64,000 nt of DNA from a virus (lineage: Duplodnaviria; Caudoviricetes), in IMG/VR virus record IMGVR_UViG_3300028591_000004, positions 32,001 to 96,000 of that record. One strand, 5' to 3'. A model generated the notes under the pieces. That model did no database searches and was not told the DNA's origin. It worked only from the letters and a program-made list of their open reading frames with translations. The translations under genes were made by a program, and so were the position numbers. Below, piece by piece: positions 15,605-27,005 of this stretch (positions are counted from its first letter, which is position 1; each line of letters begins with the position of its first letter).

Positions 15605-15676
15605 AGTCGCGTCGCCAAGAGGCAAGGCAACGGACTTTGACTCCGTCATTCGCACGTTCGATTCGTGCCGCGACTG
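15605..15676 (+). tRNA. tRNA-Gln(TTG)
   Basis: Acceptor AGTCGCG/CGCGACT; anticodon arm ACGGA-CTTTGAC-TCCGT; T-loop TTCGATT; CCA not encoded. Confidence 0.9.
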
Positions 15677-17044: not shown

Positions 17045-17117
17045 GCCGGTATAGCTCAATTGGCAGAGCAGCTGATTTGTAATCAGCAGGTTTTCGGTTC
17101 GAGTCCGAATACCGGCT
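17045..17117 (+). tRNA. tRNA-Thr(TGT)
   Basis: GCCGGTA/TACCGGC acceptor; GCTGA-TTTGTAA-TCAGC; TTCGAGT T-loop. Confidence 0.95.
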
Positions 17118-21361: not shown

Positions 21362-21622
21362 ATGAACAGGGGAATCCGCAGGAAGAACGATTACAATAAA
21401 GCGATCAGGAAGCAGAATATTGCACGTTTTGTTTACGGCTTTCAATGGTACGACAATCTTCACGAATACTCCAAAGGAAAAATTCATTGTTCCTGTCCTC
21501 TGTGCGCGGCCAAGACCAATCCGAAGCGTAAAAGGATTGGGCATGGATATACAATCAAAGACACCAAGAGAGTGAATGAAATGTCGTACGAGGAGGCGTA
21601 TATGTGTGAGGAAGAATTTTAA
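21362..21622 (+). CDS. Small basic Cys/His protein
   Basis: SD AGGAGG; KIHCSCPLC. Confidence 0.6.
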   Translation: MNRGIRRKNDYNKAIRKQNIARFVYGFQWYDNLHEYSKGKIHCSCPLCAAKTNPKRKRIGHGYTIKDTKRVNEMSYEEAYMCEEEF

Positions 21623-22028
21623 ACAGTTAATTCTTAAGTTTGGGGATAGCGGCCAGTTAATTCTTGATCCAGAGGATATTGAATATTTATCAGCTTGGAA
21701 TATTGTAAAGCATTTGATGTTGATTGACTGTTCAAAAGCGATTTACGAAAGAGATATTGCTAAGGATATTTGCTTAATTCTAAAAAAGTCTGCGAATAAA
21801 CAATTTGATTCTTTCGGCACAGTGTTTGAAAGACTTATGTATTCCAGAGACATTGTTACGCTGCGTTTTGTGTATGAAGACGAAACTCAGGAAATAGACG
21901 TCGACTGGAAAGATGAAAATGAATACGGGTCCGACAACAAAAGGCAGACATTTGCAATGAAAGGCGATAGTCTTTTAATTGCGATAGGAAAACTGAAAGC
22001 AAAAGATTATCTTAAAGGTTTCAATTAG
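21606..22028 (+). CDS. Hypothetical protein
   Basis: GTG start after GGAGG (start uncertain). Confidence 0.55.
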   Translation: MRKNFKQLILKFGDSGQLILDPEDIEYLSAWNIVKHLMLIDCSKAIYERDIAKDICLILKKSANKQFDSFGTVFERLMYSRDIVTLRFVYEDETQEIDVDWKDENEYGSDNKRQTFAMKGDSLLIAIGKLKAKDYLKGFN

Positions 22029-22099
22029 GGGCATTAGTTTAACGGCTAAAACTTTCGCTTTGCACGCGAAGGATAAGGTTTCGACTACCTTATGCTCCA
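22028..22099 (+). tRNA. tRNA-Ala(TGC)
   Basis: GGGGCAT/ATGCTCC acceptor with the G3:U70 Ala determinant; TTCGC-TTTGCAC-GCGAA. Confidence 0.85.
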
Positions 22100-22302
22100 C
22101 ATCAGGAGAGAAATCTCCTGAATATGCGGTTGCGCATAAGCATTAATCCGGAGCTTGCCACTCCGGGCCGTCAATTTAATATTGACTGAAAGCGGTGCAA
22201 TGAGTTCAGTCAAAAATGTCGCACAACTCCATTTGCCAGCAATACAATTATTTGTATTATTGCAAACGCGACGTAGGCGGAAACAATTATGTTTCCGTTT
22301 AT

Positions 22303-22389
22303 GCGGATATGGCGGAATAGGCAGACGCCAGAGACTTAAAATCTCTTGCTCAATAGAGCGTGTGGGTTCAAGTCCCACTATCCGCACCA
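22303..22389 (+). tRNA. tRNA-Leu(TAA)
   Basis: GCGGATA/TATCCGC acceptor, long variable arm, CTTAAAA loop, encoded CCA. Confidence 0.93.
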
Positions 22390-22473
22390 GTCCCCCAAAA
22401 GGGGACCGATTTCTGGCAACCGGGAAAGACCGGCATACTAACGGTTGATTGGCACTCTGGAAAGACAGAGATT

Positions 22474-22566
22474 TGCAGGTGACGGAATAGGTAGACGTGA
22501 AAGGCAATAACATAGTGCCGGGGACGCCACTGTGTGCTATGTGAGGTGCAAATCCTCACCCTGTAT
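22474..22566 (+). ncRNA. tRNA-like RNA with 6/6 acceptor/T stems and no anticodon arm (copy 1)
   Basis: TGCAGG/CCTGTA; D-like GGAATAGGTAGACG; GTGAGG-TGCAAAT-CCTCAC. Confidence 0.6.
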
Positions 22567-22570
22567 CTAT

Positions 22571-22655
22571 GCAGCGATGGCCGAGAGGCTTAAGGCATCT
22601 GTCTTGAAAACAGAAGAGTGTAAAAGCTCCGTGGGTTCAAATCCTACTCGCTGCG
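22571..22655 (+). tRNA. tRNA-Ser(TGA)
   Basis: GCAGCGA/TCGCTGC; TCTGT-CTTGAAA-ACAGA; long variable arm; G73. Confidence 0.92.
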
Positions 22656-22661
22656 TTTTAT

Positions 22662-22739
22662 GCTCCACTAGCTAAGTTGGTTGTAGCGACGGCCTTATAA
22701 GCCGTGTCATTAAGCTGGGTTCGAGCCCCAGGTGGAGTA
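22662..22739 (+). tRNA. tRNA-Ile(TAT)
   Basis: GCTCCAC/GTGGAGT; ACGGC-CTTATAA-GCCGT; TTCGAGC T-loop; A73. Confidence 0.85.
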
Positions 22740-22763
22740 CTATTTTTTTTAAAGGAGATTGAT

Positions 22764-22952
22764 ATGCACTTTTTCAAACAAAACTGTGATCCTGCTATTT
22801 ATTTTAACGGGAAAGCCTATCCAACCAGTGTTTATATGCAAGCCTATAACGAAGCCATGCATGATAAACAGCTTGAAAAAGAAATTGACGCTCTGGAAAA
22901 GAAATACATTCAACTGCATTTAGACGTGCTGATGAATGAACAAACCAATTAA
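22764..22952 (+). CDS. Small hypothetical protein
   Basis: SD AAAGGAG; start re-set. Confidence 0.55.
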   Translation: MHFFKQNCDPAIYFNGKAYPTSVYMQAYNEAMHDKQLEKEIDALEKKYIQLHLDVLMNEQTN

Positions 22953-22978
22953 AACTATTTATTAAAGGAGACTGAACA

Positions 22979-23758
22979 ATGGCAAAGAAACTCGTAGCAG
23001 AAGTAACTAACAACGAAGGCGAACAGCAGGAAGTACAGTTCAATGAACAGACGGCGTCCGTGAGAGTAGAAATCAAGCGGGTCCCTGTAGAGAAAGCGCG
23101 TATCAAAATTGTCGGAGACTCTCCTTTGCTGGTCCATGCGTGGAGTGAGAAAGTCAAGAAAGAACTGCTTGCGAATATGCAGATGGACAAGCGGGAGAAA
23201 AAGCAGAAGACCCACGAAAAGAAAGACCCGTTTGCGGACTTTGTCGAAGCTGCTTATTGGATTACTCCGATGCCTGATGTTCGGGGTCTTGAACCCGAGA
23301 AGCAGATTGAACTGTTCGAAAAAGCAATCGACGACGGCGCCCAGTTTGGTTTCCCAGTTATTGCGTTTAAGAAGGCCGCTATTGCTGCCTGCTTGAGTTC
23401 TGGCTTGATTAAAAGTGTGTCTCTGATGCGGCGGTTGTTCCATGTCAATGCTGTGAATGGAGCTCATGTTAAGTCTTCTCAGGAGCTGGCCATTCTGAAG
23501 ATTGAAGAGCCTCCGGAACTGTCTGAAGACGTTGTTAAGGTTGGTCCTTTCAACAATCGTCAGCCAGACCTGAGATATCGCCCTTCTTTCAGGAAGTGGA
23601 GTACAGAACTGGAACTGAGCCTGATTAAAACCGGAATGTTTACGATGGAAGATATTGTTAATGCTATTGATATGGGTGGTTTTATGAACGGCGTTGGAGA
23701 ATGGCGAACCGAAAAAGACGGTGAATTCGGCAATTATCATGTCGAGATTACAGATTAA
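22979..23758 (+). CDS. Stand-alone RAMP/Cas7-like RNA-binding protein (putative)
   Basis: N-terminal IKIVGDSPLLVH strand, GFPVIAFKKA helix-start motif, and C-terminal Gly-rich loop GGFMNGVGEWRTEKDGEFGNYHV, i.e. RAMP layout; strong SD. Confidence 0.65.
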   Translation: MAKKLVAEVTNNEGEQQEVQFNEQTASVRVEIKRVPVEKARIKIVGDSPLLVHAWSEKVKKELLANMQMDKREKKQKTHEKKDPFADFVEAAYWITPMPDVRGLEPEKQIELFEKAIDDGAQFGFPVIAFKKAAIAACLSSGLIKSVSLMRRLFHVNAVNGAHVKSSQELAILKIEEPPELSEDVVKVGPFNNRQPDLRYRPSFRKWSTELELSLIKTGMFTMEDIVNAIDMGGFMNGVGEWRTEKDGEFGNYHVEITD

Positions 23759-23766
23759 GGAGGACT

Positions 23767-24294
23767 TTGATGGCCGCATTTGAATATCGGTTTAAAATGC
23801 CCAAGATGCATAAGGTTTCCGCGGATGTTGCTGGTAAGATTTGTCAGGAGTTGTCTGATTCAGAAGACGGTTTGACTCCCAAGCGACTGGTCGATGTAAG
23901 TCGTAATAAGAACGCTCCTCTTCACGATGAATTTGAATGGGACGACTCCATTGCCGGAGAAAAATATCGTGAGCAGCAAGCTCAGACACTGATCCAGCAT
24001 TTGGTTATTGTTCAAACGGACAATGAGGCTGAAAGGATCGTCAAGCTTACAAAGCAAAACAAAGACTCAGAAGATGCTGAAGTAAAAGATTATCCGGCAG
24101 ATCGTGGATTTGTTTCTACCGGGGAGCATAACACTCGATATGTTCCTCTTGCTTCGGCTTTAACTAATGATTTATGGAGAGCCAGCTTGCTGGAGTCTGC
24201 ACGAAAGGACAGTAGAATTTTTGTGTCTAAGTACAACAGGTTGGAAGAGCTGGCTGAGATTGTCGACGATATGAACAGATTCCTTGGTGCCTGA
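23767..24294 (+). CDS. Partner protein of unknown function between the RAMP-like gene and the array
   Basis: SD AAGGAGG; LTPKRLVDVSR...PLHDEFEWDDSIAGEKYREQQA motif; co-oriented and tightly packed. Confidence 0.7.
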   Translation: MMAAFEYRFKMPKMHKVSADVAGKICQELSDSEDGLTPKRLVDVSRNKNAPLHDEFEWDDSIAGEKYREQQAQTLIQHLVIVQTDNEAERIVKLTKQNKDSEDAEVKDYPADRGFVSTGEHNTRYVPLASALTNDLWRASLLESARKDSRIFVSKYNRLEELAEIVDDMNRFLGA

Positions 24295-24350
24295 AAGTAA
24301 GGAGACACTATAAGATCTCCCGGAGTGGATGAAAGGTCTGAACATGGTCA

Positions 24351-24773
24351 GGCAGCCATGGCGAGTACGGGTCAGTTGTTTTCGGGTAAGCAATGTCAAG
24401 GCAGCCGAGGTGAATTTTGTAAAGGTACGGTGCGCACGGGCAGCCATGTTCTGTTGAGTTGAGCTCTGCCGATGCACGTTAAGTTAAGTTGTGGCAGCCT
24501 AGGATGGGTATTGCACGTTTTGTTCCGCATCGGAGTGGCAGCCACGGTAAGTTCCGTTGGGTTTGTTGCGTGGTGAAGTGCGGCAGCCATGGTGTGTACC
24601 GGAGCTATTGGGAGTGCAAAGGTTTGGCAGCCTTGGTCAGTTGCGTAGTGTTACGGACGTGTATGTTAAGTTTCGGAACGGCAGCCTAGGTATGTACAGG
24701 TCTGTATGGGTCTCGTGCGAAATGGCAGCCAAGGACAGGAGCGTAATGTATAGTCCGCATGGGACGGGCAGCC
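24351..24773 (+). repeat. Array of 10 GGCAGCC repeats with 5-nt-phased variable spacers (putative guide ncRNA array, not a canonical CRISPR)
   Basis: GGCAGCC at 24351, 24400, 24439, 24493, 24537, 24582, 24626, 24680, 24724, 24767; spacers of 42, 32, 47, 37, 38, 37, 47, 37, 36 nt. Confidence 0.9.
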
Positions 24774-24883
24774 GATATAAAATTGTCCGTGCAATGTCAC
24801 AGCCAATCCAATTCGCGATGGGGAGACGCGATCAACAAATATCTCCCTGCTTTTATTAAACGAATAGTGAATTCACCAGTCCC

Positions 24884-24908
24884 GCCGCAAGCGGCTGGAG
24901 ATAAAGAG
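24884..24908 (+). promoter_or_regulatory. Class-A hairpin motif
   Basis: GCCGC-AA-GCGGC-tgga-GATAAAGAG. Confidence 0.5.
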
Positions 24909-24921
24909 AAAGGAGCCGCAG

Positions 24922-25284
24922 ATGCAACTCATCCGACTTAATCTCGACGGGACAACCGAATTAATACCATTCAACCCAAAAGATTCATTTTCCCAAATCA
25001 TCGAATGCGAATACATCGAAATAGTTCGACCAAGAAACTGCAAGCATTCGCTCATCGTAGACGAAGAGGGAAGGTTGAAAGAAAACAAAATAAACATTTT
25101 AGCGTCATATCTTTACGGCACACATTTTCATTATCAGCCTATTATGGGAACAGTGCTTGTTTGTGATATTACGCCATACGGAGAAATAACCGGACTAACT
25201 GATGATTCTGCGATTGAATTTAAAAAGAAACTAGATGACATATATTTGTTTGCGTTTAACATGATAAAGAACGCACTTGAATGA
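24922..25284 (+). CDS. DUF3846-like phage protein
   Basis: IEIV...LIVDEEGRLK...N..AS.LY...PIMGTVLV. Confidence 0.7.
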   Translation: MQLIRLNLDGTTELIPFNPKDSFSQIIECEYIEIVRPRNCKHSLIVDEEGRLKENKINILASYLYGTHFHYQPIMGTVLVCDITPYGEITGLTDDSAIEFKKKLDDIYLFAFNMIKNALE

Positions 25285-25530
25285 TTGTGCAGGCAAATTA
25301 TCTTTTTGAGGATGATGTTTTTTGAAAATTCAGCAAAAGATCGTAACTCTTAAAAACGAAAATCAACTGTATGAAGCAATGATGCGCAGGCCGGATGCAA
25401 CATACGAAGAGAAAGGCAATTACGGTCGGATGATCATGCAAAACAATAAAGAAATCAAAGAGCTGAAAAAAGAATTATATCAGGCAAAAAATGCTAAAGA
25501 ACTCTTAATTGAATAAAGCAAGAGGTTTAG

Positions 25531-25734
25531 ATGACAAAAGAAAAATATCAGGATGTTAAAGGCCTGTATGAAGGCAAACATGCTCCGAAAGAATATCATG
25601 TCTGGATGGTTATAGGCCCGGCAGGACCAATTATAGAGCGGAATATCTGGGGCCTGGATCAGGCTAAACAGTTTGTTCGCGGATCCTGGGATCACGAAAT
25701 CAGACGAGTTGAAGATGGGAGAATTATACCATGA
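25531..25734 (+). CDS. Small hypothetical protein
   Basis: SD GAGG; ATGA coupling to next gene. Confidence 0.55.
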   Translation: MTKEKYQDVKGLYEGKHAPKEYHVWMVIGPAGPIIERNIWGLDQAKQFVRGSWDHEIRRVEDGRIIP

Positions 25735-26345
25735 CATGGACACCTGTAGCGGAACAATTGCCTAAGGATTATATTAACTTGTTGATCACAGTTAAAGAAA
25801 AGAAAACAGGTAAAAGGTATGTAATGTCCTGCGTGTGGAGCAGTGTCATTGATCTTGAAACAGGAGAAATTATCGGCCCTCCGACTTTTGCGGATTTGAT
25901 TTCCGAAGACGGAAGAATGATTTTTGTAGACTACCAAAAAAACAAAAGCATTGAAATTTTAGCGTGGATGCCATATCCAAGTCCGTACGAAGACCAATTC
26001 AGGGTTATCGTTGCCGGATCAAGATCTTTCAACGATTATGCTTTGCTGAAAGACAAGCTTGACAAGGCGTTTTTAAAGCATAAACCAACATCTATCGTAT
26101 GTGGTGAAGCAAGTGGTGCCGACACTCTCGGAAGGCGTTACGCTGAAGAAAACGGCATTAAGATAGACAGTTTTCCGGCGGATTGGAATACGCATGGAAA
26201 GCAGGCCGGCTATATCAGGAACGAAGAAATGGCAGGCAATGCGGATGCGTTGATTGCTTTTCATGTAAATAATTCAGCCGGAACAAGGCACATGATTAAT
26301 ACAGCGAAGAAAATGGGGCTTCAAGTAAGAGTAATTAACATTTAA
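25731..26345 (+). CDS. DUF551-like plus SLOG (YspA/DUF2493-like) fusion
   Basis: WTPVAEQLP...AWMPYPSPY then VIVAGSRSF..Y, CGEASGAD, AGYIRNEEM, GTRHMI. Confidence 0.8.
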   Translation: MTWTPVAEQLPKDYINLLITVKEKKTGKRYVMSCVWSSVIDLETGEIIGPPTFADLISEDGRMIFVDYQKNKSIEILAWMPYPSPYEDQFRVIVAGSRSFNDYALLKDKLDKAFLKHKPTSIVCGEASGADTLGRRYAEENGIKIDSFPADWNTHGKQAGYIRNEEMAGNADALIAFHVNNSAGTRHMINTAKKMGLQVRVINI

Positions 26346-26357
26346 AGGAGAAAACAA

Positions 26358-27005
26358 ATGAAAGAAACAATGACTGTGCATAAGGCTCTGAGTGAACTGA
26401 AAATCCTTGCGGATCGGATCAACAAGGAGATTAACAATCTGACTTTCCTGACAGTGAATAAGCATTCCAATGCCAAGATTGCAGGACAGTCGATTGAAAA
26501 GTATGTTAAACAGGTGCAGGACGACTACAAGTCCGTGATGACCTTGATTAACCGTCGGAATGCGATTAAGCGGGCTGTGACCAATTCCAATGCGATTACA
26601 AAAGTCAGAATTGGAGATGGAGAATATACTGTTGCTGAAGCCATCGACATGAAGGCGAACGGCATCAACTATCCTTATAGCATTCTGAATCGCATGGAGA
26701 CACAGTGGCGTTCTTGCAATGCTATGGCAGATCGGGAAAACGGGGAAAAGCTTGATCGCCGTGCGGATGAATACATAAAGTCTCTGTACGAAAATGCGGA
26801 CATGAAAAATATGTCCAGTGAGATTCAGAAAGTCCGGGAGAACTTTGTCGAGTCTCAAACCATGGACATTGTTGATCCTATCGATGTCCAGAAAGCTATG
26901 CTTAATCTGAAAAATCAGATTGACGCTTTCATGTCTGAAGTGGATTCCGCTCTGTCCGTTTCCAATGCCTTGACAACAATCGAGGTGGAATACGAAACGC
27001 TATGA
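26358..27005 (+). CDS. All-helical coiled-coil protein upstream of a structured RNA candidate
   Basis: MTVHKALSELKIL..RI / TVAEAI / DSALSVSNALTTIEV; biased codons; strong SD. Confidence 0.75.
   Translation: MKETMTVHKALSELKILADRINKEINNLTFLTVNKHSNAKIAGQSIEKYVKQVQDDYKSVMTLINRRNAIKRAVTNSNAITKVRIGDGEYTVAEAIDMKANGINYPYSILNRMETQWRSCNAMADRENGEKLDRRADEYIKSLYENADMKNMSSEIQKVRENFVESQTMDIVDPIDVQKAMLNLKNQIDAFMSEVDSALSVSNALTTIEVEYETL

Follow-up and report, generated by a model that had tools for sequence, protein, structure and literature searches.

A probable VIPR guide-RNA array with a relaxed repeat handle, encoded by a complete phage genome of 150.8 kb

Positions 24351–24773 (+ strand) of the window, i.e. 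the whole 64-kb stretch of DNA that was analyzed, very probably hold the guide RNAs (vrRNAs) of a VIPR system in the form of an array. The phage genome that carries it is complete, 150.8 kb long and has direct terminal repeats. Systems of this kind are already known: VIPR (Viral Interference Programmable Repeat) is a phage-encoded CRISPR relative first described in 2026, in which a minimal RAMP protein, built of an RRM core, a G-loop and a thumb, polymerizes on a vrRNA of GGY-NN repeats with the GGY buried and the NN presented, and the NN base-pair to double-stranded DNA, skipping one target base in three, which leads to transcriptional silencing (bioRxiv 10.64898/2026.04.26.720920, 720927). 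Seven types have been distinguished, with NNNGG, YNNNG and NNNNG as alternative repeats, and the published targets are mobile elements, namely competing phages and satellites. An origin before CRISPR has been proposed for the system, and experimental work covers only a few loci. What is new here is a locus with a relaxed handle, in which the first G (G1) alone is kept. The locus combines an adjacent Vipr homolog, the handle residues, 5-nt repeats with a variable NN and matches to foreign genes with a 1-nt skip, and has no self-targets.

An initial annotation had proposed a non-CRISPR multi-guide RNA in which each pentamer is the footprint of one protein subunit and the dinucleotides carry the targeting information. 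This interpretation is supported as essentially right: a Vipr homolog adjoins the array, the NN taken in the register of that annotation match foreign phage genes perfectly, and one subunit per pentamer is the mechanism shown experimentally for VIPR (bioRxiv 10.64898/2026.04.26.720920, 720927).

The operon comprises vipr, a vap-like accessory gene, a conserved leader, nine guides and a trailer. Its homology to the SUSP1 system, for which structures are solved, lets it be expected to function as follows. The array would be transcribed and Vipr protomers would polymerize along each guide, one per pentamer, each burying a G, a not-A and a not-G base and presenting the NN. The presented NN would pair with double-stranded DNA, two bases being read and one skipped, and the bound filament would silence transcription. 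Between guides the 4-nt GGCA takes the place of a pentamer and shifts the register by one base, which probably ends one filament and starts the next. Processing of the transcript is presumed as well, as is prophage suppression, of resident or co-infecting prophages, as the purpose of the whole. The heptamer GGCAGCC, which the initial annotation had taken as the boundary signal, does mark the units; given the register shift at GGCA it is better read as the step GGCA plus the first triplet of the next guide, and the NN of this first pentamer (GCC-NN) belongs to the guide.

Organization of the array

Ten exact copies of GGCAGCC, all on the + strand and starting at 24351, 24400, 24439, 24493, 24537, 24582, 24626, 24680, 24724 and 24767, bound nine guides of 7–10 pentamers of the form G-B-H-N-N in a staggered arrangement. 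The ten copies and the spacer lengths originally reported (42, 32, 47, 37, 38, 37, 47, 37 and 36 nt, in array order) were all reproduced. In the entire 64-kb window the heptamer occurs 13 times against 3.0 expected, a number reached in none of 100 shuffles. The units measure 39–54 nt and abut, separated solely by the 4-nt step; two of the nine are off phase by one base. The 5-nt phasing is evident from the autocorrelation of G, which peaks with 0.29 at lag 5, 0.25 at lag 10 and 0.15 at lag 15 and falls below zero at the intervening lags. The array has the strongest period-5 signal in the window and is the sole long period-5 tract of the genome (150,780 bp), the other, short tracts having been rejected as arrays.

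For the base counts, each unit was cut after the first four bases of the heptamer (GGCA) and then parsed as G-B-H-N-N, where G-B-H stands for G, not-A, not-G, and the seven in-phase units (60 pentamers) were counted. Position 1 was G in 53/60 (88%), position 2 was G in 23/60 (38%), and position 3 was A in 17/60 and G in 0/60, while all bases occurred at positions 4 and 5. The figure of 53/60 equals the 46 of 53 G-led triplets counted earlier once the seven GCC of the heptamers are included, and no triplet ends in G, as had been claimed. Each in-phase unit holds one non-G triplet. Its position fourth or fifth from the 3′ end, which the initial annotation had pointed out, holds for six of the seven units here and is not conserved across five related arrays, where the non-G triplets are scattered over interior positions with none in the first two pentamers. 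Such triplets sit inside perfect target matches (see below), and the register is therefore unbroken by them; the single non-G triplet neither breaks the register nor counts as a conserved feature.

The array fills the gap between two + strand genes, and no long ORF was found in the region. Tandem Repeats Finder detected no satellite. Scanning the array against Rfam returned no family, including no CRISPR RNA family, and no similarity was seen between the array DNA and GenBank phages. A structured 3′ tail, pseudoknot or ribozyme, as in characterized VIPR types, is absent from the array units.

Downstream, the trailer (24774–24858, + strand) consists of a decayed, non-periodic unit after the tenth boundary followed by a hairpin (24820–24848) and a U-rich run; its motif and hairpin are shared with one relative (L152). 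The hairpin has a fold energy of −9.9 kcal/mol, not better than shuffles (z = −0.3), and was not called by a simple terminator scan. In view of these unremarkable fold statistics and the missing call, hairpin and U-run are therefore regarded as a putative terminator, judged from their sequence.

The vipr gene pair and related loci

Upstream of the array lies vipr (22979–23758, + strand), encoding a 259-aa Cas7-like RAMP protein that, by its sequence and its predicted structure, is a Vipr homolog with a Cas7/Csm3-like fold and is predicted to be the subunit polymerizing on the guide RNA. A profile built from 28 homologs retrieved PDB 36pp, "SUSP1 Vipr protein" (E 1.2e-9), as the only solved structure matched, with the similarity mainly within the C-terminal 70 residues. 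H53, R201 and E241-W242-R243 align with SUSP1 H17, R138 and D177-W178-R179, where D177 is replaced by E and H53 is placed by a weak N-terminal alignment, and all five residues are invariant among the 28 homologs. The AF2 model (pLDDT 86.7) resembles Csm3, type VII Cas7 and Cmr4 (Foldseek E 5e-5), with 157 residues aligned to Csm3-type folds at Z about 10.

The second gene (23767–24294, + strand) encodes a vap-like accessory protein of 175 aa (phrog_15946), a conserved partner that is found beside vipr in every close relative inspected. No Pfam family was assigned to it and a Foldseek search of its AF2 model (pLDDT 87.9) against the PDB returned nothing; the model gave weak winged-helix-like matches only (MecI, Zur, IdeR and Z-alpha; Z about 5), beyond which the protein ends in a helical hairpin. 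From the vap stop codon to the first boundary extends the leader (24295–24350, + strand), which is conserved among relatives at 54/56 (L155), 46/56 (L152), 47/59 (L154) and 45/57 (L129) identical positions, with Vap identities of 52–68% (L152, L154, L155) and 45% (L129). The similarity stops at the first guide. In the genome, vipr, vap and the array are co-oriented; this, the conserved leader and the hairpin with its U-run speak only indirectly for transcription of the array. Of the eight annotated proteins that surround the array, the RAMP alone is Cas-like, and nothing resembling an adaptation module is found among the genes annotated at 21576–27005.

The wider neighborhood contains tRNA genes for Ala-TGC, Leu-TAA, Ser-TGA and Ile-TAT at 22028–22740, directly upstream of vipr, and two further ones for Gln (at 15605) and Thr (at 17045). 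Downstream of the array (24922–26345) lie genes for a DUF3846 protein (24922–25284) and a DUF551 and YAcAr/SLOG fusion (25731–26345); a SLOG gene is found near the VIPR locus in relatives too.

Related loci were collected with both proteins, 22 viral ones with the 175-aa protein and 35 from bacterial genomes with the 259-aa protein, and one sliding-window criterion was applied to both sets. On the gene strand, 55 of 57 carry a period-5 G tract, i.e. 33/35 bacterial-genome loci and 22/22 viral loci, the latter including one (L147) with a weak signal under the calling threshold. It nearly always adjoins the 175-aa gene in the viral loci, and directly adjoins the vipr/vap pair in all loci read. 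In GC-rich relatives the tract takes the form of long NNGGC runs with a 4-nt unit every 10–15 pentamers, hence GGCAGGC. The low-GC close relatives (L129, L152/L153, L154 and L155) have the same gene order as the window and share the boundary GGCAG[C/T]C-NN-GG with differing NN. In five related arrays the unit length is 4 mod 5 in 41/49 units, and G occupies position 1 in 339/381 pentamers and position 3 in 4/381. Among the close relatives, leader and boundary are thus kept and the NN differ.

Guides are shared only near the trailer end. Guide 8 of nine (24684–24723) corresponds to guide 7 of nine in L155 (L155:3256–3315), with all eight NN identical and 4/8 triplets different, and the last guide of L152 (L152:3440–3480) is partly similar; the leader-proximal guides of the related arrays all differ. 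Sharing confined to the trailer end may hint at a polarized turnover as in CRISPR arrays.

The looseness of the repeats raises the question of a decaying or orphan array, a VIPR relic whose expression or loading has been lost. Degenerate triplets, two units one base off phase and the loss of periodicity in the unit after the last boundary are what such decay could leave behind. Against this, vipr and vap are intact with their key residues conserved, the NN are kept where the triplets drift, and perfect 14/14 and 16/16 target matches persist (see below). The looseness of the triplets is moreover common to all four close relatives and therefore a property of the clade, not of decay. We consider a relic extremely unlikely.

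Other array forms were seen during this survey. Two or three separate period-5 arrays surround the gene pair in L148 (2401–3200 and 4381–4960), L143 (2361–2720 and 3811–4100) and L156. The L143 units close with a conserved ~25-nt word (GGGAACGCGCAATTATCATTGAC-like), possibly a tail-type architecture within the same protein family. A scan of IMG/VR for three spaced copies of GGCAGCC was not informative, nearly all matches being coding tandem repeats; it also brought up L027:2360–2700 (IMGVR_UViG_2515154185_000003), an unrelated type of array in which hairpins of the form GGCAGCCC-loop-GGGCTGCC recur every ~45–60 nt, separated by G/T-rich, non-repeating spacers.

Guides and their targets

Targets were sought with the NN of each unit, placing one wildcard base between dinucleotides. 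Guide 8 (24684–24723, + strand; NN: TA AT CA CT TG CT GC AT) was chosen because L155 keeps its eight NN while half of the triplets differ. Its exact 1-nt-skip pattern occurs in at least 117 IMG/VR loci, compared to 4 for the reversed control pattern, and nearly all of them represent one site in an amidoligase gene (PF12224, phrog_2443), namely its codons Y-I-Q-L-C-L-A-(I/M). The skipped bases are the wobble positions, and variation falls there.

The loci retrieved with guide 8 alone were then used to test guides 2 and 4 and the guides of relatives. Guide 4 (24497–24536, + strand; NN: TA TG AT AC TT CC TC GT) matches the large terminase gene, among the guide-8 loci listed at 16/16 in 22 and with two or fewer mismatches in 57, against 0.25 sites for shuffled controls. 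Guide 2 (24404–24438, + strand; NN: GA GA TT AA AC GC CG) matches the amidoligase gene again, 129 nt downstream of the guide-8 site and on the same strand; 63 of the guide-8 loci listed carry this match with at most two mismatches, 13 of them a perfect 14/14, and shuffled controls gave 12 sites on average and 51 at most. Since guide 2 is short, its match is the least secure of the three; what makes it convincing is the fixed offset to the guide-8 site. Among the same listed loci, the relatives' guide L154_8 has a 20/20 match to a ParB-methyltransferase fusion gene in 22 loci; for L152_3 the matched gene is the terminase, at 24–25/26. Apart from the short guide 2, shuffled guides came out near zero on the target loci.

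In the target, one base is passed over for every dinucleotide read: with skips of 0, 2 or 3 bases, guides 4 and 8 and the relatives' guides lose all matches, and guide 2 falls from 72 to 4–13 sites. As a rule, the targets do not match the AG that is constant in the last pentamer. Target sites occur on both strands relative to the gene and lie inside genes, not at promoters. In the phage's own genome the best guide matches equal those of shuffled guides, i.e. there are no self-targets, and the amidoligase gene is absent from it. A search of the guides against other VIPR loci gave nothing above chance.

These matches also bear on whether the array might be a purely protein-binding element devoid of guides, such as a TRAP-like RNA ligand or decoy, or a set of iterons, a centromere or a packaging site. 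A fixed G every 5 nt does recall the triplets with 2–3-nt spacers bound by TRAP, and the heptamers stand about four helical turns apart. A pure binding site has no need of hypervariable NN, however, and the strand asymmetry always follows the gene strand; the spacings differ by 5 nt, i.e. half a helical turn, which is a poor fit for phased binding to DNA. Neither the foreign-gene matches under a single skip rule nor the neighboring Cas7-like protein would be explained. Such an element is hardly credible, and the candidates considered under this heading (TRAP-like ligand, iterons, pac site), together with two-tier G-quadruplexes, were displaced by the Vipr match and the target matches. The G-quadruplex reading fails because the second G is not conserved in the array.

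For the remaining six guides of the VIPR array no convincing target was found, leaving three of nine (2, 4 and 8). In exact 1-nt-skip scans of IMG/VR, guides 3 and 7 gave 0 matches each; a 17/20 match of guide 3 in one of the target contigs only equals the highest score among shuffled guides. Guide 6 gave 12 exact matches, mostly to the peptide T-Q-A-G-T-I in unrelated large proteins, and guide 1 gave 3, too few for a claim; a 15/18 match of guide 1 in the provirus G004 falls in an unrelated gene. Two of the three exact guide-1 matches (18/18) lie in serine-recombinase-like ORFs of two viral contigs (L333:4128–4153 and L334:1366–1391), in the region of the catalytic motif S-I-D/E-R-Q/H-V-R-N-I, and such genes are a possible fourth target class.

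The target contigs are 44–68 kb long, one of them being a complete provirus, and their terminase shares ~78% identity with that of Coprococcus, Agathobacter, Blautia and Dorea phages assigned to Ca. Heliusvirales, a widespread temperate lineage of the gut. Within this lineage, Coprococcus phage NatCom_29765 is matched by guide 4 at 16/16 (TerL), by guide 8 at 15/16 and by guide 2 at 13/14. By their sequences, the target phages thus resemble temperate Ca. Heliusvirales phages of gut Lachnospiraceae. Since at least three of the nine guides match gut-prophage genes by the two-read-one-skip code, the array looks like a weapon of one phage against others. That the VIPR locus is functional in another role, regulating host genes or the phage's own program with incidental Heliusvirales matches, would accommodate the six guides that have no identified target. 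It leaves aside that three independent guides and at least two guides of relatives converge on one phage family, unlike shuffled controls, that self-matches are absent, and that competing mobile elements are the published VIPR targets too; we regard such a role as very unlikely.

The targets of the clade can be inferred: in Heliusvirales-like prophages, which form one of the gut's most widespread phage lineages, they are conserved codons in the genes for terminase, amidoligase and ParB-methylase. Targets of this type suggest an ecological interaction, and the host of the uncultured 150-kb phage is likely to be of the Lachnospiraceae type. The array also provides a clear natural example of a tail-less, "staggered" organization, with up to 19 guides in the largest relative array, and indicates that one conserved G per handle is enough for the register to be kept.

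More tentatively, a joint reading is possible, though on balance doubtful, in which the array is self-punctuating, turns over in a CRISPR-like manner and serves as a broad-spectrum anti-prophage weapon. For the punctuation, the GGCA slip beside two always-canonical pentamers could be the sole signal for filament end and start, in which case a tail, ribozyme or dedicated nuclease would be unneeded and only G1 of the handle required. For the turnover, arrays of 7–19 guides, a near-identical leader and sharing at the trailer end are hints of a polarized gain of guides, for which we know of no mechanism. If true, a large lytic phage would be using the array against an entire order of prophages in the gut, at stretches of codons in which positions one and two are not free to change.

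Comparison with known systems

The most distant parallel is TRAP in the attenuation of the Bacillus trp operon, where RNA carries a triplet every 5 nt, each bound by one subunit of an oligomer. The spacers in that RNA carry no information and no target is recognized, and the TRAP fold is unrelated to that of Vipr, which makes the likeness an analogy only. With the Cas7/Csm3 filament of Class 1 CRISPR, the subunit fold itself is shared (Z about 10 to Csm3), as are one subunit per fixed RNA step, periodic flipped bases, a conserved leader and variable guides. The step differs, being 5 nt with three buried bases here and 6 nt with one flipped base in Class 1 CRISPR, and the array system is, unlike the latter, phage-encoded. 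By repeat length and gene content the locus falls outside CRISPR-Cas, with a longest exact repeat of 7 nt compared to repeats of about 23–50 nt and no cas genes among those annotated around the array.

Among VIPR systems, type II from Escherichia phage SUSP1 (PDB 36pp, 36PK) has the same RAMP residues in contact with RNA, the same operon logic of vipr, one accessory gene and a flanking non-coding array, and the same 5-nt repeat with a variable NN. With a 1-nt skip, its guides likewise match competing elements within their coding sequences, on either strand, and self-targets are absent. SUSP1 encodes four vrRNAs of ~100 nt with 9–16 strict GGY-NN repeats and a conserved pseudoknot tail each, whereas nine guides of 7–10 loose repeats are found here, with none of the tails by which type II is recognized. 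The SUSP1 array targets a satellite and the array of the window temperate phages. Even though the G2-holding residues of SUSP1 are kept, the handle also follows the published GGY far less strictly.

Closer in array form are the Gordonia phages Pipp, UmaThurman, ODay and Ecliptus, which encode Vipr homologs of 29–34% identity together with homologs of the accessory protein. In Pipp an NNGGC array with GGCAGGC boundaries lies between the Vipr homolog gp42 and the accessory homolog gp44. The handle of these phages is GC-rich and strict (GGC), in contrast to the loose G-B-H of the window. The Pipp array (L332:3129–3398; MN234179.1 33093–33362) is annotated in GenBank as a protein, gp43 ("hypothetical protein"). 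VIPR arrays thus occur mis-annotated as protein-coding genes in GenBank phage records, and similar cases are likely in other actinophage records.

The nearest published counterpart appears to be the "staggered arrays" of VIPR, in which, according to the figure legend, vrRNAs overlap by one nucleotide (fig. S18, bioRxiv 10.64898/2026.04.26.720920). As far as that legend goes, the likeness lies in GGCA being followed by a new series of pentamers, here and in all relatives, and the difference in the boundary GGCAG[C/T]C-NN-GG and the handle reduced to G-B-H that characterize the present low-GC clade.
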